From assembly GCA_024181965.1 (NCBI GenBank), contig BQXS01012765.1, forward strand, positions 1 through 40,770: a DNA stretch of 40,770 bases. Direction: 5' to 3'. Shown here one piece after another: positions 1,836 to 38,486 of this stretch. The position numbers were made by a program, and so were the translations under genes. The DNA comes from Aduncisulcus paluster (taxonomy: Eukaryota). Below the pieces are notes generated by a model. That model was not told where the DNA came from and searched no databases. It saw only the letters and a program-made list of their open reading frames with translations. Every line of letters starts with the position of its first letter. Position 1 is the stretch's first letter.

Positions 1836-4205
1836 TCAAAAGATCTTACTATTACCAAAACTTCCAAAAGGATTTGAGAAGTCACTTCTCCCACTTGAAA
1901 ACAGTTCCGGGCATTTCAAGTATTGTTCCTCAAATTCTTCTGTTGGAACGGGGATTCCATACCATCCACCGATCGACATACCACAAACACCATAGGAACA
2001 CGATGCAATGTGTCCCACTTCTGGGTAGGACGTGACAACACCACTCTGATACCCGACAAAGAAACTGCCCTGCCTGCCAAAGGAAGGCTGAGAATGATAT
2101 ATTGGAGCGCCAATCAGTTGAAAACACTCTGAGAAACTCAATTCTTTGAATCCTGGCGCACGCAAATGTCTGGGAACATGTTGAATTCCACCAGTAAAGC
2201 CAAAACCACCCATAGTTCCACGAACAAGAGATACTGATGTATCAGATTTGGAGCTTGCGGAACTTTTCCCTTTTTCTTCTTCAATAGGACTTGAAGATTT
2301 TTTGTGGCATTCTTTATCTTCTTCCTAGGGTACAATTCCAAATTGAAATACATAATCTTCAAATATCCTTCCAATAAGCTGATATCCCACCTTAAGCCCG
2401 GGATAGAAAGTGTTCTTCAAGAATTTCTTCATTGAATCTTTACCATNNNNNNNNNNNNNNNNNNNNCCAGTAAAGCCAAAACCACCCATAGTTCCCCGAA
2501 CAAGAGATACTGATGTATCAGATTTGGAGCTTGCGGAACTTTTCCCTTTTTCTTCTTCAATAGGACTTGAAGATTTTTTGTGGCATTCTTTATCTTCTTC
2601 CTTGGGTACAATTCCAAATTGAAATACATAATCTTCAAATATCCTTCCAATAAGCTGATATCCCACCTTAAGCCCGGGATAGAAAGTGTTCTTCAAGAAT
2701 TTCTTCATTGAATCTTTACCATGTGCTTGATAAGCCCAAGGATGCTCTGGAACCCATTGTTCAACGCGAGTGAGTTGTGAAACTCGGTCAGCATCATAAC
2801 ACTCGACAAGTGGGAGAGAAAACTCTTCGAACATCATTTGGGCCACAGGCATTGTCAAGATATATGATTTGGAACTTGGGGAATCAGACAGGAAGAAACT
2901 CATGTTGGTCGAAGAAGAAACGGCAGCATTGAAACAACACTGATAAACGGAATATAATGCCGGAAGAGGAATAAAGACAGAATCCAAAACATTATAGATG
3001 TGTGGAAATGGCTGAGTATGGACGTTTTGAATACACTCTTCGGCCGACACATGTTTATCCATTGTTGTCTCGAGAATACCCTCAAACTTAGATACCGAAT
3101 TAGATATGGCGTTCTCATAATTCGGAGTTGGAGCAATTACCTTTGTTTTGACGATAACGCAATGTGAAAGAGGGCACGTTTCAACAACTGAATTGTTTAG
3201 AGCCCTAATAACATGTCCGGAAATAGTCATGGAAGGAGTATCGGATGCCGAAGCAATGTCAGAAAGTGTGGCTGCTGAAGGCAGGTCAAACTCAATAAGA
3301 GCCCAAGATGTTCCAAGAACAACTCTGTATTTGGATGGATATGACGCTACAGAACTAGATATTGAGGAAATTGGAGATGGGGATGGAACAGAGGGATGAT
3401 CTTCAGGAGAAAAAGGAACCAGAACCATGGAAGAAATGCCAGACCATCCAATATTATCACCAGTCGATTCGTCATTAACTATTACATTAATAACTTTATC
3501 ACCACCACGGGGAAGAACAAAAAACCCATCTGAGTGACTGATAACATCAATAGAATGATCTTGACTCGAGCATGATGCTATAATACAGTTTCTCGAAAAA
3601 TCAATAGGAGGACTGATGCAATAGGTAGAAAACCACCTTTCAGCTTCTTCAAAGTTGGCTCTTGAATAATCTTGCCATTGATCATGGTCAAGATCCTCTT
3701 GAGCCTTAAATACGGGAAGAGAGACCATTTTCTCGAATGGAATGGCTAAAAATTGTTGTCTCCATTTTCCCATCAATCTTCCGTCACATAATCTTCCAAA
3801 AATAGTTATTGTATGATTTTTAATGGCAGATACTGGAGTGAGAGATCGAGCATCAAAATCAAGAGAGAAAGCAACATGGGACTCAGTATTTACGGAAGAC
3901 CACTGATCTATTCTTTTATAAGTGAATTTTCCCACAATATAAAACATTCCATCTGGTCCAATAAAAGAGAAATCAATTTTCGAAACACAGACTCCATTTT
4001 CTGGATCGCTCGAAGTTGCTGGGCAAAAATTAAACACTCTGCCATCAGAAGTTGTAAAAACGGCATTTCTATATGTTACAACTCGTTTAACGGGGTCTAA
4101 CGAATCCCAGACAATAGGATTCCAACTTGAAGCTTCTGAATTAAATGAGGAGGTATGGGGTGTCTGAATAAATTGTGGAAGATATTGAAGAAGATATAAT
4201 GGCAT
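1836..4205 (-). CDS. hypothetical protein, ~697 aa after collapsing the gap duplication
   Basis: ORFs 2325..4205 and 1836..2213 join through the duplicated segment (2191-2446 = 2467-2722); removing 276 bp and using the AAG-containing copy gives 698 uninterrupted codons. No family recognised. Confidence 0.7.
2191..2722. repeat. 256-bp direct duplication flanking a 20-N gap (scaffolding artefact)
   Basis: 2191-2446 and 2467-2722 match except at 2220/2496 and 2327/2603; Ns at 2447-2466. Confidence 0.9.
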
Positions 4206-4477
4206 CCGTTATATATTGATAGCAAAGAAAACAGCACAAGGATGAATTTTGATCTACATGACCAAAGATGATCATGTACTACATGGTCGATTATTAAATA
4301 GTTAAAAACAATAATTTTTCTATTATATGCGGAATAAATTCTTTTAAGAAATGCATCAATTTATGATCTTCAAGTTGAAGAAAGAAAATAGTCAGTTTAC
4401 TACAAAAAATTCAAAACTATCATTAAACATTTCGGTTGTGAAAAGGAGCAATGCTCCAAAATATTCCAAGAAGTAAC

Positions 4478-7400
4478 CTATTCTTTCTTTTCTTCCTCCT
4501 TTTCTTCTTCTTTTGGAGGAGTAGGAGTAGATACGGGGGTAGCACTAGCCTTGTCCTCTTCTTCCACATATCCACCAATCTTTCCACACCACATCTTGAC
4601 ATCCCACATGGAGTCTTGCTCTCCACTCTCGGCATATTCTTCTTCACGACCAACGTGTTGTTGATACCAATCACGCACCCAGAGAACAAGACGTTTCACA
4701 CGCTCAAACTCTAATTTGGTGGCAGTTTCGATAACACTAGCAGCAGTAAAAGAGGAACAAGAAGCGCCAAACATAGACTTGTATAGTTCACGGTTAGTCT
4801 TGTAAGTAAGAGCAACAGAAAGAGCAGAAGAGACATGAGTCATGGCTGTTCCAAAGAATACACGCGACTCAGAATCCTTTGAGAGAGATGTTCCGGGGTG
4901 GGCGAACAACAAGAGAGCAACAACAAGCCATAACAATCCACCACTCTTGGCGAGCATTGTCTTGTTTTTCTTTTTCCTGGAGATGGATGTGATGATGCTT
5001 GCGAGCCCATCACGCTCAGTGCCACGAAGATCTTCTTTCTCTGGCTCTCCCCAACCCATAGCACACAACTGGCAGAGGTTGAGAACTTCAACAATATCCA
5101 TACCATCCTCAACATCTGTCTGGTAACAACGGTTGAGAGCAACAATTCCAACACGAATAACCATATCGAACAAGGGCATAGGATCAGGAGAATGCAGGAA
5201 ACGAATGTCACTGACTTTCTCAGAAACACCCCAAGCGGATCTAAAAATAGATTCATAAAATTGTTCATAGAATCCCAGCTTCTCCCAAGCACCAGCCTCT
5301 CTTGAAGCTTCAGTCTTCTCCTCTTCCTTCATCTTGTTCTTTATAATACGTCCCATGACACCCAGTGTGGACACTTGAGTGAGCATCCTGAGCATAACCT
5401 TACGGAGTTCATCAACGGTCGAGCTTGTCACAAGGCCAGAACGTACCCGAAGAATCCAACACACACAACGGAGGGCAGAAGTGAGCTTAAAGGCAACAAG
5501 AGAGAGAGGAAGAGTGTCGCGAAGAGACATATTGACTTGTTTGCGAAGAAGTTGAGTCATCTTGGGAATCAATGTACACAAATCATTCAACATTTGTTCG
5601 TGGTTAACATCAATTTCCACCTCTTCCTCGTCAGCACTTTCCTTGAGCATAGCATCTTCATCCAGAGCTCCAAGGAAACGTTCTTTGGCAGAGGCATCAG
5701 CCAACATCGTGGAGACGAACACCTTGCAGACCTTCAAAAGATGGACGGAGCTGTTGTGAGGAACACCCTTGAAAGAAGTGAATGGGAAAGGAGGCAGGTA
5801 AGAGGAAGACCCAGGTCCACGAGACCCAGACTTTCCAATCCATCCCATTGACTCCCAGAGACTCTTGAGCAACTCCTCGCCAAGGAGGAAATTGAAACTG
5901 TCACATCGCTGTCCCTCATCCCAAACAACATTGGCATTCACCTTGGATGAAGCAAACTTGGAGTAAGCATGCTGGCCAATCTTGACAAGAATCTTTCCAC
6001 TTCGGTTCCCCATAAATGAGTTCAAGGCAGATTCAGCGGATGGGTTTGAGATGGTGACAATTTCAACCCAATTCTTCCCATGTAACTCAGAGTCATTCTT
6101 CCTCTTTGATCTCTCAAGATCCATGGCTTTCTTCGCATTACCAACGATTAGTTTCAGGTAAGAGTCGTACAAAAGCTTTCCAATGGCCTGTTTAGTGATC
6201 TTATCATCATGGCTCACGCATCGACAAGCCTCAGCAAGACTCACACATCCATAGACACAGCAAGCATTAACAAGATGGGCAGACACGAGGGAAGGGAGGA
6301 GAAGAGGGGAAGGTCTGACAGACGTAACAGGGGATTTCTTGGCAACTGGGGGTGAAGAGGGACTTTTGGTCGGCACATCTTCCTCTAACTCATCCATTAG
6401 CATTCCATCAAGCTCTTCTTCCTCGGCCTTCTTCCTGAGATCCTCTGGAGAAACGGTAGGGGTTTCATCAGATGTATCAGAAGAGGCAATGAATTCATTC
6501 AAATAGTGCGACATGAACACACAAAGGGACACAGCAGTGATTCCACCACGCTTCACACACATGTCCTCAGCGGAGGAGCATCCTTCACGGATAACACGGG
6601 CAAAGAGCTCGAGGGAGAGACGAACAGCAAGGAGAGCATCATTGGGGCTGACGGCAACAGAGGGATCAAAGGTTGTGAGCATTGAACCCTTGGAATCGAA
6701 CACACTGGCGAGAACTCTTGAGAAGTGATCGTTGGGAAGAGGTTTAGGGAAGCATAAAGGTTGATGAGTATCAGCAATCTCATCTCCCTTCTTTCTCTTC
6801 GCAAGACCCTTCGCACGCATATCCTCATATACTTGGGCTGGGTTGATCCTATAAATGTGACAGAGAGTGATACAAATCATAACGGAACGCTTGAGAATGA
6901 CGTCGAGACAAGTGCAGATCATCTCATCGACAACGCGACATTCAGAAAGACTCAAAAAGAGTTTCAAAATATGATTGTACATTCTGATTGGAGTACCAAC
7001 ACTACAAACGGACTTCATGGCATTGGTTGCAGCCTCCTTGTTACGCTCATCGACAGAATCGCTACGATCAACATCAGCACGCCCGCTAGTGAGTATTTGT
7101 TCGATCTGAGGGGTTCTCTTGATTGTTTGCTCAACAACGTCACGGTGTGCATCAATGCAGTGGAGTACAATCTGGGAGAAAAGATTCGACAAATTATCAT
7201 ATTCGTTCAACTTATGCTGATAGTCCTCTGATATAGAGGGGGGGGAGAGAGAAGCGAGAGATGAGACGTCCATTTGTCTTCTAACCTCCCAAACAAGCTC
7301 TCTTTCTTCACGACCAAGAGGAGACATGGGAGAGACCATTCGAGAGGAGTTGATGCAGACACCTTTGATGAGACTACCAACCTCATCGGCAGTGAGTTCA

Positions 7401-10400
7401 ACGAAACTTTCATCGTCTTCCTTTCGGATTTCAGACCCAGAATCACGTGCCTTACGCTGTTTATCAAGTTGTTCGAGAAGAGGAGTCAAATAGTAAGGAG
7501 AAATGTACACTTCTTTCTTAGTGCGGACAAAAGCACACTTGATGCCCTTGATGGCTTCACGGACATCCCATTGGAGTTCAGCGTCTTCAGAGTGAGCTTC
7601 TTCATAGTTAAACACACCATCAGCGATCAATCCCTTCACGTGGGCCTGGTTAACCTGGAGACAAGAACGAAGCTCTTTCCTCATTTCGGGAGTGAATATG
7701 AGACGAGGCATAACAATGGCACTCGGAGTGTTGAAAACAGAAAGGAAGGAGGATGAGTCTCCTCTGCTCTTGTTCTTGGCGTTCTCGAGTACACTGTCAA
7801 CAAGAGCAAGACGAAGGGCTTCTCCCATCACATTCTTACACCACACACGAGCGTTGGAGCACATTTCCATCGTGCAGACACAGATAAGCTCACAGACAGA
7901 CTCGCATTCGAGTTCACCCTCGATCACACCACACATGTGACCAATCATTCCAACGAGACCTCCACGCATGAAGAAAAGGGCAGGGAGGGAGGAAGGGTCG
8001 AATGTTGTGGAAGATGAAGAGGTACCAGAGTGATGGTGGTCACTGGGATCACTCAAAAGGGCAGCCTTCCCTTCAAGGATCCTTCTCATGTTATCTCTTC
8101 CAACAGAATGTCTAATAATCTCTCCAAGGACTCGGATGGCACTATTAGCACATGAACGTGAGGCGTGATCATTGAGAGAGGACAGAAGGAGCTGTGATAT
8201 CCGGGTGACATAGAGAGGCAACAAATGGCCATGAGTACAGGTCAATGGGGCAACACAAGAAAGGGAGGAGAAGGAGGCGAAATCACGTTTGAGAATATCA
8301 AATCTACGTTCACTCTCTTTGAGGGTGAAGTAAGTTCCGTTCAAACATTTCATCATGATTTGACAAACAATCCCAGCATCACTGAAGGCTCCAGCACCCC
8401 ACACACCGACTTTAACATCAATATTACTCAAATACATGCACATAACCTCAAAAACAAAGCTGGTGGTTGCGGTATTAACATTGTCGAGCCGGCTATCATC
8501 GTTTTTGGGCGGTGTCATGGTATGAAGCAAGAGATCAAGGATCTTGGATGTGAACGTGGTTGTGAGTTCAGAAGACATTGGAGAAGTACTAGGTCTGCCA
8601 GTCTTTCCATCAGAATAAGCAATTANNNNNNNNNNNNNNNNNNNNACTTTAACATCAATATTACTCAAATACATGCACATAACCTCAAAAACAAAGCTGG
8701 TGGTTGCGGTATTAACATTGTCGAGCCGGCTATCATCGTTTTTGGGCGGTGTCATGGTATGAAGCAAGAGATCAAGGATCTTGGATGTGAACGTGGTTGT
8801 GAGTTCAGAAGACATTGGAGAAGTACTAGGTCTGCCAGTCTTTCCATCAGAATAAGCAATTAATCTCTCCTCCCAAGCACACATGAGAAGTGCGATCAAG
8901 GCACCGTAGCATTTGAAACTACCCAAACCAGCATCATTTTTATGGCTATCGTGTGTAAACAAGTGGGTGAGTGTATCAATAACACACTCAAGACGAACGA
9001 CACTACCGTATCTCTCGAACACACTCACTTCACGGGCCTCGGGCAAAAGGTAATCCTGGCATTCAGTCGTTGTTGTTGTGCTAACAGTGGAGCGGCCAAC
9101 AGATGATGATTTGGAAGCGGAAGGATCGGCACCCTCAGTGACACCAGTAAGTCCAGTCATAGTCATTCCAGTGGCAGAGTTCCCAGCACCAATTCCATAT
9201 GGACTGTAGATGAGCTGGTGCATGAGTTGTTGAGTCAAAGTCTGAGGGAGGGATCCCTTGGATGCATGGTCATCAACGATTGTACGGGCACAATAGGCAA
9301 TGAAACGGTTGACAGAGGAGATAAAGGATGATGTGTTCTTCAGTTTGGTTGCAGGGTTCTTGTTGAACACATCAATGAACACCCCACCAAGGGAGAACTG
9401 AGCTCCAAAGGCACCATAGTTCACAGGATACGGAGGGAATGCATTGACAGAAGGGGACACTTCAGTGAAGTATGTTTCAGGGTGGGATAACACAACACCT
9501 AGATGACGCTCAGTCACAGTCACAGTTGAGGCAGAGAGACTTGCGGCAACAGAATCCCCAGCTTCGCCTCTAGATCCGAATATCTTCTTGAATCCAGATG
9601 AGAGGAGTCCTTTCTTGCTCGTGTCAACTCCTTTCACCTTGTTCCTTACGATCGTCATGAAATACTCGGCCTTTCCTTTCTCTTTGGCAACCTCAAGAAG
9701 AGGATTGACGGCAGACTCAAGCTGAGACATCAAAGAGTCATACATGAGCTTGTTCCACACAAACTCTGGGGTCTCAGTGTGGTGGTGAGCAAGGGACCCA
9801 AGCTGGGCACATCCAGTCGCAGCGACTTCTTCGGCAAGGGAAGGTGGGAGGAAGAAGGCCATGTAGTTTGGAATATCCTTCCTTTCACACTTCCACATGT
9901 CAGGACCCTCAGTAGCAGAGTTGCTTGAAGAATCGACAACAACACAACTCTGTTGCTTGAGACAAATGTGACGTAACAATGTGTTTGTGGACTCTGTGAA
10001 GCCAAATCTAAGAACACGGTAGATAAGACATTCGAACACACCGAAACGATGGATAATAGGAAGGTAATCGGGGGAATGTTGAAGAGCATGGAACAGGAGC
10101 ATGCAGCAGACATTGTGGAGTGATTCATATTGGGAAACAATTCCATAAATGAGGAGAGCAAGGTTGTGGGGCATCAAGNNNNNNNNNNNNNNNNNNNNGC
10201 TTGAGACAAATGTGACGTAACAATGTGTTTGTGGACTCTGTGAAGCCAAATCTAAGAACACGGTAGATAAGACATTCGAACACACCGAAACGATGGATAA
10301 TAGGAAGGTAATCGGGGGAATGTTGAAGAGCATGGAACAGGAGCATGCAGCAGACATTGTGGAGTGATTCATATTGGGAAACAATTCCATAAATGAGGAG

Positions 10401-12551
10401 AGCAAGGTTGTGGGGCATCAAGACAATTCTATACAAACGAATCATTGTGTCACAGAGAACTCTGGCAACAGTAACCATGGATGTGGCAACACCAGCCTCA
10501 CAGGGAATCTTATCCCAGAAAACCTGTGGACAGTAGGACAATAGAGCGGAAATACCACGGTGTTTGACAAAACTCACGACACAACGCATCCTAACGCCGT
10601 CGAGACCTTCGGGGAGGATGGAGAGAGATGTCTGGTTTAAGGGGTAGATGGGGGAAGGCATGAGGGCTTGCTGATGCCCAAGCATGCCCTGGGGAGGGAT
10701 AGACCAACCCACAGGACATGCCAGACGCAGTAACATGCGTTCACACCATACAGCAACGTCACGGGTGGTTCGGAGAGGAGTGATGAGGCTGACCATGTAG
10801 TTCATAACATCTTCAACTTCAGGGAGCACAGAGATGGGATCTATGTTGATGAGATGGTACATGCATTCGATGCACACGGCAACAACACTGGCATCAACAT
10901 CAGAGGCCGAGGCTGAGAAGAGAAGGGAGAACAACCTGCTCAGTGTGGACAAGGATAAAATATCATTCAAATGAGCAGATGGGACAACACACATCTCGGG
11001 GGAAACCATGGAACGATCGAGAAGACCGGACAGGGCAGCCAGAGAAGCCATGGTGGAGGCAGAGGAGGTTGAAGAGCTTCCAGGGGACACGGAGCTGGCC
11101 TCAGCGCTTGAGGCAGAGAGAAGTTCTTTTACACGGATTCCATTGCTTTCCATTGCCATCTCACGTTCACGCTGAGCCTCACGAAGGGCAGGCAAGAGGT
11201 GTTTAAGGTAGAAAGGACCAGCCATTGGGTGAATATCAAGAGATGGGAACGAAACGATCATTTCTTTGTACTTAAAGACACCTTCATTCTTGTCGATCTC
11301 GGTTTCTTCGACTTCAAGAGCACGGACAATGTCACGGAACACAGTCTGGGTGTAAATGAGAGAAGGAGAGTGAATAGGTGGATTATCAATGCTGTGGAAG
11401 AGATATTTCCAGTTGTAACGCTCAAATCCATCACATCCATTGGGAGTACATTTCATTAAATCCTTGAAACGAGCAAATTCTTCCTTGGTTCCCATTTTTT
11501 TGAATGTAAGAAACTCTTCTTCGCCAATTGTAATGTTTGATGGCATCATTCCTTCTTCCATGGGTGCAGGACGACCAGTGGAAGCAACTCCAGCACAAAG
11601 ACGTTGATGCAAGCCAAGGGGCAACAATTTCCTCAAAATATCGTGGATATTGATTGGATTTCCATCACAAAGGATTCCAAATGTACGTCTACAGGCGTCA
11701 CGGACGGCAGGGTCGCAATGAACAAGAGAATGTTTGAATAACTTGATAATGTATCCGCCATCTCTAGCTTGAGTCTGAAATTTGACGAAATCTTGCATTG
11801 GAATGTTCATGCACACAGCAGAAATGGCATTTGCACCACTAACGACTAGATTGTCAACAACTTCAGAAGGGCTTGAGGCAAGGGTTCTTGGTGGCCAAAT
11901 GTATGAAAATAGGAGTGTCATGTTACTTTTGAGTAAGGAAGTGATGGATTCCTGGAGAGAAATGGGGGAAGTTTCATCTCCATGAGTAATGATCATTGTG
12001 AGGAATTGACACATGGTAGCCATGAGAGATCCAGCAGAATCCTCTTCTAGATGAGCATACTTATCGAATATCTTCTCAATTAGACCGTAACCATGCTGAT
12101 TGGTGAAAAAGGTGGTTTTAGCAACAGTTTCTTGTTTCTTCACCTTCTTGGTCTCCTTTGACAGAGGAAAGTTCCCAAACATTGACTTTTCAAGAACTTT
12201 AAGGGTTTCAATAATAACGTGAGGTGAGGCGTGTTGGAGAGATTTAACAACTGGAGAAAATCCGTGCTTGCTCCCAGCGATGAAAAGGAAGAAATGTTTG
12301 TTTAAAAGAAAGTTCTGAAGAATTTTTAAAATCTGTACACTTTCCTCTACAGATTGATCCTCGTCTTTTCTGGATATTTCTTCGATGTCGAACAATATAC
12401 AATCAAGAACACCTTTATCCTTATAGCTCCACCTTTCCATCTTCAATAAAACCTCATTAACAGGTGGAAGGGCTTCGTCCCATGTCATTTTCCCCTTTTT
12501 ATAAGAAGCGAGCAGCTTTTGCATATCTTTAGGGATCTGGCGATCAGACAT
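4478..12551 (-). CDS. RME-8/DNAJC13-like IWN-repeat alpha-solenoid protein, ~2530 aa
   Basis: ORFs 10125..12551 and 4478..10405 fuse after removing gap duplications of 244 and 237 bp (7593 nt = 2531 codons). RME-8-like motifs: NWKYLF..HSPSLIYTQ..DIVRALEVE..FPSL..MAGPFYLKHLL, and ETPEFVWN..FSLGGVFIDVFNKNP..LKN. Confidence 0.75.
8409..8862. repeat. 217-bp duplication flanking a 20-N gap (artefact)
   Basis: 8409-8625 = 8646-8862; Ns at 8626-8645. Confidence 0.9.
9955..10422. repeat. 224-bp duplication flanking a 20-N gap (artefact)
   Basis: 9955-10178 = 10199-10422; Ns at 10179-10198. Confidence 0.9.
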
Positions 12552-36868: not shown

Positions 36869-37588
36869 ATGGCTGAACCTGTTAAACTGGGTGTATGTGT
36901 TTATTAAATTCAATGAAAGTTGATTTATTTCCTTATTTTGATTTTTCAACGCCTTAATTTATGGTGACATGTCTTTTTTTTCCTTTTCATTATTCAGACG
37001 ACAATCATGTCGGTAAAATATGCTGGGGGAGTTATTTTAGGAGCTGATACAAGAACAAGTGCTGGATCATATGTGGCTAATCGTGTATCCTATAAAATCA
37101 GCAAATTATCAGATAGAATCTATTGTTGTCGGTCTGGTTCGGCCGCTGATACAAGATTCTTAGCAGATGTAACCAAGACTAACTTGAGCATGCATAGTAG
37201 TATCATAGAAGAACCTCCCCTTGTTAGAACTGCCGCGAGATTAATGAGACATTACACATACGCATATAGAGAACATCTGTCAGCTGGACTTATTGTTGCT
37301 GGTGTAGATGAAATAGAAGGACCAAAGGTATTCCAATTGCCTTCAGGTGGGAGTGCCATCGAAATTCCAGTCGCAATTGGTGGGTCTGGTTCAACATTTA
37401 TCACCGCTTTCGTGGACGCAAACTATCGTCCTGATATGAACAAAGCTGAAGCACTTCAATTTGTAATTAGAGCTATTTCTCATGCTATGGATAGAGATGG
37501 ATCTAGTGGTGGTATCATCAGGACTGTCGTTATTCCTGAGAGTGAAGATGAGGAAGTTGCTGAAGAATGGCATAAGACTGTTCTTTAA
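36869..37588 (+). CDS. PSMB6: 20S proteasome subunit beta1 (PSMB6/Pre3), intron 36893-36997
   Basis: MAEPVKLG|TTIMSVKYAGGVILGADTRTSAGSYVANRV..CCRSGSAADT..GGSGS..RDGSSGG. Confidence 0.95.
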
Positions 37589-37787: not shown

Positions 37788-37897
37788 CGGCCTCTGTCGG
37801 GAATTGAACCCAAACTTTCCACACAAGAATACAAAATTTTTCCATTGGAAAATTTTCGAAAATGTAGATGGACGTTCTTCCATTAAACTACCGGACC
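37788..37897 (-). tRNA. atypical tRNA-like gene, isotype undetermined, ~38-nt insertion in the anticodon arm
   Basis: GGTCCGG TA GTTT AATGGAA GAAC G TCCA-[47 nt]-TGGA AAGT TTGGG TTCAATT CCCGA CAGAGGCC G; A- and B-box-like sequences present. Confidence 0.7.
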
Positions 37898-38060
37898 TTG
37901 TAGTTGTAGTGTCAAAAATATTTCGTAGTCTTTTGAATTTATGTTTATGCCGGATAGAATGATGATATTTATAAATCAATAAATTTGTGCTCCTATATAC
38001 ATAGTGGTATCATTAAACTACACCTTCAAAGGGTCTGCTATAACGGAAAAAATAATATTC

Positions 38061-38066
38061 AAAAAA
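38061..38066 (-). terminator. Pol III-type T6 terminator of the 38067-38161 tRNA-like gene
   Basis: TTTTTT directly follows the discriminator G on the minus strand. Confidence 0.6.
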
Positions 38067-38161
38067 CGGTTTCTATGAGGAATCGAACCTCAACCTTCCA
38101 AACTAGAGTAAATTTTTCAATGAAAAAGTAGATGGATGTTCTCCCATTAAACTATTGAACC
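38067..38161 (-). tRNA. atypical tRNA-like gene, isotype undetermined, ~23-nt insertion in the anticodon arm
   Basis: GGTTCAA TA GTTT AATGGGA GAAC A TCCA-[32 nt]-TGGA AGGT TGAGG TTCGATT CCTCA TAGAAACC G; canonical B box GGTTCGATTCC. Confidence 0.75.
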
Positions 38162-38486
38162 AATTGGTCTTATTCGAAGACTCAAATCAATCTGATTCAA
38201 ATGATTTGAAATAATTTCAAGCCCAGAAAGAGAAAATTTTAAAAATGGCATTTTCGACACTATCAGGGATTCATCTGGTTAATTAGAGAACATAATATGA
38301 TCTCTTGTGTTAATTATAATATTTTGTCCTATTTATAGTATGATTTCATCTGTGGTAATCATTTTTCTAGACTACATCCATTCTTTGGTGGAATATAAGA
38401 TATTCCTATTTTCTCGTCCCATTCCGGGTTGTATTTGATTCGATGATTAATTCATTGGTATAATATTCTTTTCAAATACTTCTATA

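Follow-up and report, generated by a model that had tools for sequence, protein, structure and literature searches.

Two diverged tandem copies of a tRNA-derived gene with a shared irregular acceptor stem and an anticodon-loop insert in the fornicate Aduncisulcus paluster

What kind of RNA, if any, is specified by two neighbouring tRNA-like cloverleaves which differ in sequence but share the same irregular acceptor stem? [quoted passage not shown] The pair is best explained as belonging to the nuclear genome of this organism. The frame of a proteasome beta-subunit at 37007-37588 (+) displayed 100% identity to an NCBI protein named from A. paluster, a kinesin was also found in the window using Pfam, and the tRNA-like pair is placed between the 3' end of the proteasome gene and the next gene. 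The published draft genome, obtained by Illumina sequencing, comprises 29.4 Mb in 25,863 contigs, with a BUSCO completeness of 40%, and the main text of this announcement, as distinct from its supplements, leaves tRNAs unmentioned (PMC9933649). Literature searches on the tRNAs and genome of Aduncisulcus, and on tRNA introns in Giardia, returned nothing on the tRNA genes of A. paluster. Regarding the protein-coding content of the window, six of the eight long frames scanned were without any Pfam family, and Pfam gave no match for the 1975-codon frame at 4478-10405 (-). The latter overlaps by about 280 nt, in a different frame, with a frame of 808 codons at 10125-12551 (-), and the two may together represent a single gene interrupted by an intron or a frameshift.

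Both copies contain a full tRNA body. Copy A is a 94-nt gene (38161..38068, minus strand), in which the 5' acceptor strand GGTTCAA (38161-38155) faces TAGAAACC. Sequence reading then places the D arm at 38152-38138, the anticodon stem at 38136-38132 with 38101-38097, the loop and insert at 38131-38102 (CTACT on the 5' side, a hairpin, then TCTAGT on the 3' side), the variable region at 38096-38093, the T arm at 38092-38076 and an 8-nt 3' acceptor strand at 38075-38068. The discriminator, G 38067, is directly followed by six T residues (38066-38061), a terminator-like run of the Pol III type at which transcription of copy A would be expected to end. Copy B is a 109-nt gene (37897..37789, minus strand), in which the 5' acceptor strand GGTCCGG (37897-37891) faces CAGAGGCC. 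It was read in the same way, with its D arm at 37888-37874, its anticodon stem at 37872-37868 with 37822-37818, its loop and insert at 37867-37823 (homologous to those of copy A, with extra pieces of 12 and 3 nt), its variable region at 37817-37814, its T arm at 37813-37797, its 8-nt 3' acceptor strand at 37796-37789 and its discriminator at G 37788. Sequence reading revealed no run of at least four T within about 65 nt downstream of copy B. A spacer of 169 nt (38066..37898) separates the two copies, which have in common the D stem GTTT/GAAC, a 7-nt D loop containing GG, the anticodon stem TCCA(T)/(K)TGGA, a 4-nt variable region, a 5-bp T stem and the T loop GGTTCRATTCC. The T stems themselves read TGAGG/CCTCA in copy A and TTGGG/CCCGA in copy B. 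Nucleotides conserved in tRNAs (U8, A14, G18G19 and a pair of the A15-U48 type) are present in both, and the D arm is presumably of the Asp/Glu/Gly type. Internal Pol III promoter elements were also found in both copies, with GGTTCRATTCC as the B box and TAGTTTAATGG as the A-box region. Of the nine matches to the B box in the window at no more than one mismatch, only those in copies A and B are exact. All the details previously given of this pair by the sequence-only reading, namely two minus-strand cloverleaves 169 bp apart with shared stems and G73, were correct when checked against the sequence.

The checks with tRNA search tools that this reading had proposed gave a divided answer. With Infernal, copy A scored 36.3 bits against the Rfam tRNA model RF00005, above the gathering score of 29, while copy B remained below it at 27.2 bits, in a local match covering model positions 7-64 that left the acceptor stem unaligned. 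A covariance model built from the two copies (R1) scored them at 110.8 bits (A) and 135.6 bits (B). Among the other Pol III RNAs described in Rfam, including vault RNA, none reached E <=1 at this locus, where RF00005 alone did so. ARAGORN did not recognize the pair, since its default search returned no tRNA gene in the window. When introns were allowed, it reported copy A alone, as a Lys(ttt) gene whose intron has 3 nt and whose variable arm is long, a model which we rejected because it needs a C-U mismatch in a stem and does not fit copy B.

The acceptor stem departs from the canonical seven pairs between equal strands, a 7-nt 5' strand being set against an 8-nt 3' strand in both copies. In copy A, the irregularity is located at 38072..38074 (-): the extra A is placed at 38072, within an A run (38070-38072), G 38073 pairs with C5, and A 38074 stands opposite A6 (38156) as a mismatch. 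In copy B, it is located at 37793..37795 (-), with the extra A at 37793, G 37794 paired with C5, and A 37795 mismatched with G6 (37892). Infernal aligned copy A without a gap, at the cost of two mismatches and with C as the discriminator. Over both copies, 85.7% of the acceptor cells pair in the bulge register versus 64.3% in the ungapped one, and the evaluated energies were -8.4 versus -4.6 kcal/mol in A and -12.1 versus -4.6 kcal/mol in B. The shared acceptor stem of 7 versus 8 nt, with its bulged A and its purine-A mismatch, was thus upheld in both copies. Covariation of pair 4 was seen in the bulge register only, so that the extra A and the 6-67 purine-A mismatch are shared by the two copies while the flanking pairs have turned over. 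A contig from the DNA run (record 7) matches copy A with zero differences, copy B lying outside its coverage; as this run may be the source of the assembly, such a match does not constitute independent confirmation. Other geometries were tried by hand, including tRNA-Sec, an acceptor stem of 8 or 9 bp and a -1:73 pair, and none of them pairs in both copies.

Acceptor stems with a bulge have a precedent. In passages of PMC5330540, bacterial tRNA-Sec variants are described that combine a 12-bp acceptor/T helix with one bulged acceptor nucleotide, at 3a, 4a or 5a, and still work. G73, found in A and B, is also the usual tRNA-Sec discriminator. By contrast with A and B, these bacterial RNAs have UCA as their anticodon, and both their variable arm and their D stem are long. 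The same passages list as tRNA-Sec features the UCA anticodon, a 13-bp acceptor/T helix (9/4 in eukaryotes), a 6-bp D stem and a long variable arm (PMC5330540). In the present pair, no TCA is conserved in both copies, the D stem comprises 4 bp and its loop 7 nt, the variable region has 4 nt and the acceptor/T helix amounts to 7/5 plus one bulge, versus 13 bp in tRNA-Sec, and an assignment to tRNA-Sec was rejected. The sequence-only reading had proposed a new structured RNA class, and this went too far: the complete tRNA body and the passage of copy A above the Rfam threshold indicate a variant of tRNA or tRNA-like RNA, and the bulged tRNA-Sec variants, as those passages describe them, also count against a new class.

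Base pairing was indeed maintained between the two copies. Their pairwise alignment comprises 95 columns with 19 differences, 48 columns being paired and 47 unpaired. In the bulge register, 93.8% of the 48 cells pair, no pair is broken from A to B, and 5 of the 24 pairs have changed on both sides and still pair. These compensated pairs (A / B) are 4-69 (U-A / C-G) and 7-66 (A-U / G-C) in the acceptor stem, 50-64 (G-C / U-G) and 51-63 (A-U / G-C) in the T stem, and a pair between nucleotide 36 and a nucleotide of the insert (U-A / A-U). Control structures, in which the partners were slid by 1-3 columns, gave 0-1 compensated pairs and 40-54% pairing, and the compensatory changes previously noticed in the T stem and acceptor stem were thereby confirmed. 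When 19 substitutions were placed at random, the probability of obtaining at least five compensated pairs was 1e-5 and that of breaking no pair was 1.25e-4, all this covariation resting on one sequence pair and on a structure derived from those same two sequences. Of the 19 differences, thirteen affect paired columns (48 in total) and only six affect unpaired columns (47 in total). The whole-molecule folds were no better than those of shuffled sequences (z of +1.19 for A and -0.54 for B). This pattern of compensation indicates that the fold, including the irregular acceptor stem, is under selection in tRNA-derived Pol III genes. Within the limits of two copies, we regard the signal of selection, like the unusual anatomy, as real.

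Such compensation bears directly on the proposal that A and B are recently dead tRNA pseudogenes, or relics without any remaining function as RNA, whose common defects would come from one damaged ancestor and which may persist as TFIIIC-binding or boundary DNA. Several features fit this proposal: the odd anticodons discussed below, the defective acceptor stem, the score of copy B below the Rfam threshold and its lack of a nearby T run, and the silence of ARAGORN at default settings. Moreover, A and B boxes alone would be enough for a role at the DNA level, and the location of the pair, after the 3' end of the proteasome gene and before the next gene, puts it between two Pol II genes. However, neutral decay should break pairs, whereas none was broken and five were compensated (P of about 1e-4 to 1e-5), and base pairing is not required for a function exerted at the DNA level. 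The relic explanation consequently appears unlikely. Random decay of pseudogenes had already been doubted by the sequence-only reading, and rightly so, because pairs 4 and 7, on both sides of the irregularity, were compensated while the extra A and the mismatch stayed in place.

The anticodon loop carries an insert, which the sequence-only reading did not mention, any more than it did the lack of a usable anticodon. Beyond a 7-nt loop, this insert amounts to 23 nt in A and 38 nt in B, and Infernal left 28 nt (A) and 43 nt (B) unaligned. The inserts are homologous, with three differences over 23 aligned columns in addition to the indels of 12 and 3 nt, while the 5' flanks of A and B do not align; the insert is thus about as conserved as the tRNA body. 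Starting from the anticodon stem, the arm presents a 2-nt bulge (C32, U33), then a 3-bp helix between nucleotides 34-36, reading ACU in A and ACA in B, and a 3' partner (AGU and UGU, respectively) that comprises the two final nucleotides of the insert and nucleotide 38. The third pair of this helix is compensatory, ACT/AGT in A being replaced by ACA/TGT in B. More distally, the insert of copy A forms a hairpin of 6 bp with a 3-nt loop and copy B has a longer inner hairpin; realignment by eye of this distal hairpin (UUUUUC/GAAAAA in A, UUUUCC/GGAAAA in B) revealed one compensatory pair. The arm of copy A folds weakly, at -2.4 kcal/mol.

The closest known kind is the intron-containing nuclear tRNA gene. 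A and B resemble such genes in their full cloverleaf, their A and B boxes, their conserved D-loop and T-loop nucleotides, their anticodon-loop insert pairing with nucleotides 34-36 and the T run after copy A. They differ from these genes in the 8-nt 3' acceptor strand with its extra A and purine-A mismatch, in that no A-I pair or bulge-helix-loop was found, in the anticodons that excision would leave, ACU in one copy and ACA in the other, each with U37, and in an insert as conserved as the body. The splice sites were considered in the light of the general eukaryotic rule given in passages of PMC10275265, which may not be the fornicates' own: the pre-tRNA adopts a bulge-helix-loop, C32 or U32 pairs with an antepenultimate A or G of the intron, and the cut sites are single-stranded. 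The A-I pair was not found in either copy, the antepenultimate nucleotide of the insert being U, facing C32, in both. In both copies, too, cleavage at the 3' side would have to take place within the ACN/N'GU helix. Finally, a scan for strict bulge-helix-bulge motifs, performed by script in one orientation and by eye in the mirror orientation, found none that would remove the insert at matching sites in A and B. Since folding of these AT-rich inserts is weak, the failure to predict a splice motif in them constitutes weak evidence.

The outcome of splicing was then considered at the level of the anticodon. Canonical excision, at 37/38, leaves the loops CUACUUU in A and CUACAUU in B, i.e., the anticodons ACU and ACA with U37 in each, whereas the 7-nt loop expected of a decoder contains an anticodon that is in use and, at position 37, a purine. 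To our knowledge, neither ACU nor ACA is used in standard eukaryotic decoder sets. Ser tRNA identity requires a long variable arm and Cys identity requires U73, and the body of A and B has neither. Enumeration by hand of all excisions leaving a 7-nt loop always resulted in anticodons that differ between A and B.

The possibility that A and B are genuine decoder tRNA genes, with an intron removed at the canonical position and an acceptor irregularity that is tolerated or serves as an identity feature, was weighed against these observations. In its favour, copy A passes the Rfam threshold in an alignment that assigns the insert to the anticodon loop, a T6 run directly follows the discriminator of copy A, and pairing between anticodon and intron is normal in eukaryotic pre-tRNAs, according to passages of PMC10275265. 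A real intron is supported best by a third paralog (see below), alike up to CTAC and then divergent, as paralogs with different introns would be: its breakpoint lies at or beside the canonical 5' exon end. This same divergence counts against a non-decoding RNA, as it is what a fast-evolving intron at 37/38 would produce. The decoder reading nevertheless has to accommodate the anticodons ACU and ACA with U37, one shared body for two copies that would decode different amino acids, the missing A-I pair with a 3' junction buried within a helix, and an insert as conserved as the exons. We consider it quite unlikely, and the insert and the missing usable anticodon would be the strongest arguments against an ordinary decoder.

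A decoder could also be restored by a non-canonical intron, cut after U33. The loops would then be CUCUAGU in A (anticodon CUA, reading UAG) and CUCUUGU in B (anticodon CUU), which would suggest an alloacceptor shift or a suppressor. The 7 nt immediately upstream of the anticodon stem's 3' strand do make up, in A and B alike, a loop that has U33 and carries a purine at 37, and ectopic tRNA introns are documented in the nucleus of one eukaryote, Cyanidioschyzon merolae (PMC3728597); those genes would offer a parallel if the insert of A and B is cut elsewhere than at 37/38. In A and B, by contrast with the C. merolae introns, no bulge-helix-bulge was found that supports such a cut. The C. merolae ectopic introns reportedly carry this motif. 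Some fornicates read TAR as Gln, which speaks for a UAG-reading tRNA, while G37 is atypical in anticodons reading NAG codons and the two copies differ in identity once more.

The genetic code of the window is also relevant in this respect. The 24 frames of at least 200 codons end with TAA (12), TGA (8) or TAG (3), one frame leaving the end of the window. TAG thus serves as a stop in 3 of the 24 long frames, including one of 1980 codons, which argues against a suppressor, and a reassigned TAG is unlikely. The open-frame content doubled once TGA was treated as a sense codon, but none of the long genuine frames has a TGA in frame. Over both strands of the whole window, TGA outnumbers the other stop trinucleotides (1991 occurrences, with 1300 for TAA and 614 for TAG), and the doubling of frame content upon its removal reflects codon bias in off-frames rather than an altered code. 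The code of the window appears to be the standard one. Taken with the points above, a decoder cut after U33 seems very improbable.

We therefore favour another explanation, to which we assign a probability of about 0.45, just short of even odds: A and B may encode a non-decoding tRNA-like RNA in which an extended anticodon arm is kept. This explanation is favoured because the "anticodon" evolves like a stem position, because the insert is conserved without splice-site structure, because no excision yields an anticodon that is sensible or shared, and because the acceptor stem is distorted and starts with GG. The insert is most likely kept in the RNA, or at least functionally needed, judging from its conservation. 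Counted against this explanation, besides the behaviour of the third paralog, are the existence of two full copies only, the lack of a T run near copy B, the weakness of the AT-rich folds and the whole-molecule folds that do not surpass shuffled sequences.

From a mechanistic point of view, each gene would be transcribed by Pol III from its A and B boxes, transcription of copy A stopping at the T6 run, and the ends would be trimmed by RNase P and RNase Z in the manner of a tRNA. In the resulting RNA, the anticodon arm would form an irregular hairpin made up of the 5-bp stem, the CU bulge, the 3-bp ACN/N'GU helix, an internal loop and the distal hairpin. The distorted acceptor stem starting with GG and the lack of a usable anticodon would keep this RNA from normal charging and decoding, and it would then act as a tRNA mimic. 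According to passages of PMC10275265, unstable tRNA-like RNAs with a 5' GG are subject to CCACCA tagging in mammals and yeast, which may, by analogy, be relevant to A and B.

Non-decoding RNAs of tRNA-like shape are described in other lineages, such as the trypanosomatid SRP partner sRNA-76/85 in passages of PMC2800229 and the MEN-beta tRNA-like small RNA in passages of PMC10275265. [quoted passage not shown] Both RNAs are likened to the present pair by shape, and neither is described with a long anticodon-arm insert in those passages. No SRP RNA was found near the locus.

The non-decoding explanation can be taken further, to a lineage-specific family of fornicate tRNA mimics, L-shaped Pol III RNAs with two selected features; this extension is doubtful, though conceivable. 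The first feature would be the acceptor bulge together with the purine-A mismatch and the 5' GG, which would block charging or tune stability via the CCA-adding enzyme. The second would be the anticodon arm, acting as a variable hairpin module that binds a protein, the ribosome or another RNA.

Provided that it is produced and stable, such an RNA would represent a rare case of a nuclear tRNA-shaped RNA in a free-living protist that has left decoding while its fold is still selected, and it would offer a natural test of how much acceptor distortion is tolerated by RNase P, RNase Z, the CCA-adding enzyme and the synthetases. If A and B are true decoders, a metamonad would be shown to employ otherwise unused anticodons or to have a tRNA intron at a non-canonical position, either of which would bear on the evolution of tRNA splicing and identity in early-branching eukaryotes. 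As relics, they would be an ordinary matter.

The size of the family was evaluated using two sequencing runs, available as assembled contigs, of which one is DNA-like and the other RNA-like, neither being on record as RNA. At a likeness of at least 80%, one further contig was found over copy A, covering 38128-38161 with four other letters, that is, from the 5' acceptor strand to CTAC. This partial third paralog diverges after CTAC and ends 61 nt later, on a contig of 1232 nt with a depth of 1289 in the DNA-like run. A and B are accordingly two diverged tandem copies of a tRNA-derived gene with at least one partial paralog elsewhere in the genome. The depth over copy A in the DNA-like run equals the sum of the locus and this paralog, namely 1338.9 + 1289.4 x 11/67 = 1550.6 in one bin and 1338.9 + 1289.4 x 23/67 = 1781.5 in a second one. 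It is thus fully explained without a swarm of short interspersed elements (SINEs). The many degenerate dispersed copies, of the tRNA-derived SINE type, that the sequence-only reading had named as the sign that it was wrong were not encountered, and a SINE was rejected on this census, which is a partial one as the assembly is incomplete (PMC9933649). A contig with the loose ends of the paralog also occurs in the RNA-like run, with an inferred depth of about 706 and 255 nt of upstream flank; if that run really is RNA, the third paralog would sit within a longer transcript. In the bins of copy A, the depth of the RNA-like run (about 706) comes from the paralog alone. This run holds no contig over A or B, which is not evidence either way on their expression.

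Further afield, R1 was applied to the 40.8-kb window with filters off and detected nothing beyond A and B, the next hit being at 12.4 bits (E 1.1). A pattern made up of the D arm and anticodon stem gave no locus in JGI metagenomes when strict. A looser version matched 20 JGI metagenome loci and 6 GTDB genome loci; these 26 are chance matches, because ARAGORN with introns recognized none of them as tRNAs and no T arm follows them. No homolog was thus found in the JGI metagenomes or GTDB genomes, collections with few protists among them.

The spacer between the two genes has features of its own. A short multi-copy element spans 37955..38022, with a core at about 37973-38022, as judged from depth in the DNA-like run: it is represented by several contigs with differing loose ends and depths of 2200-8359, versus 1339 for the single-copy flank. 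It probably lies outside the tRNA-like genes proper, and it contains an A-box-like stretch at 38021-38004 (-), with 15 of 18 positions matching. On the plus strand of the spacer, a C box (ATGATGA, 37959-37965) was found together with a weak snoR127-like Rfam match (19.4 bits, E 0.4). A C/D-box snoRNA was rejected here, there being no CUGA D box and the multi-copy core excluding both box regions. On the other side of copy A, a stretch of 24 nt at 38270-38293 (+) shows 75% complementarity to the 5' half of this copy and scores 8.7 bits with R1. It is possibly an inverted fragment, or may be due to chance, and it lies at the beginning of the next gene's RNA-like contig, whose first position is 38266.
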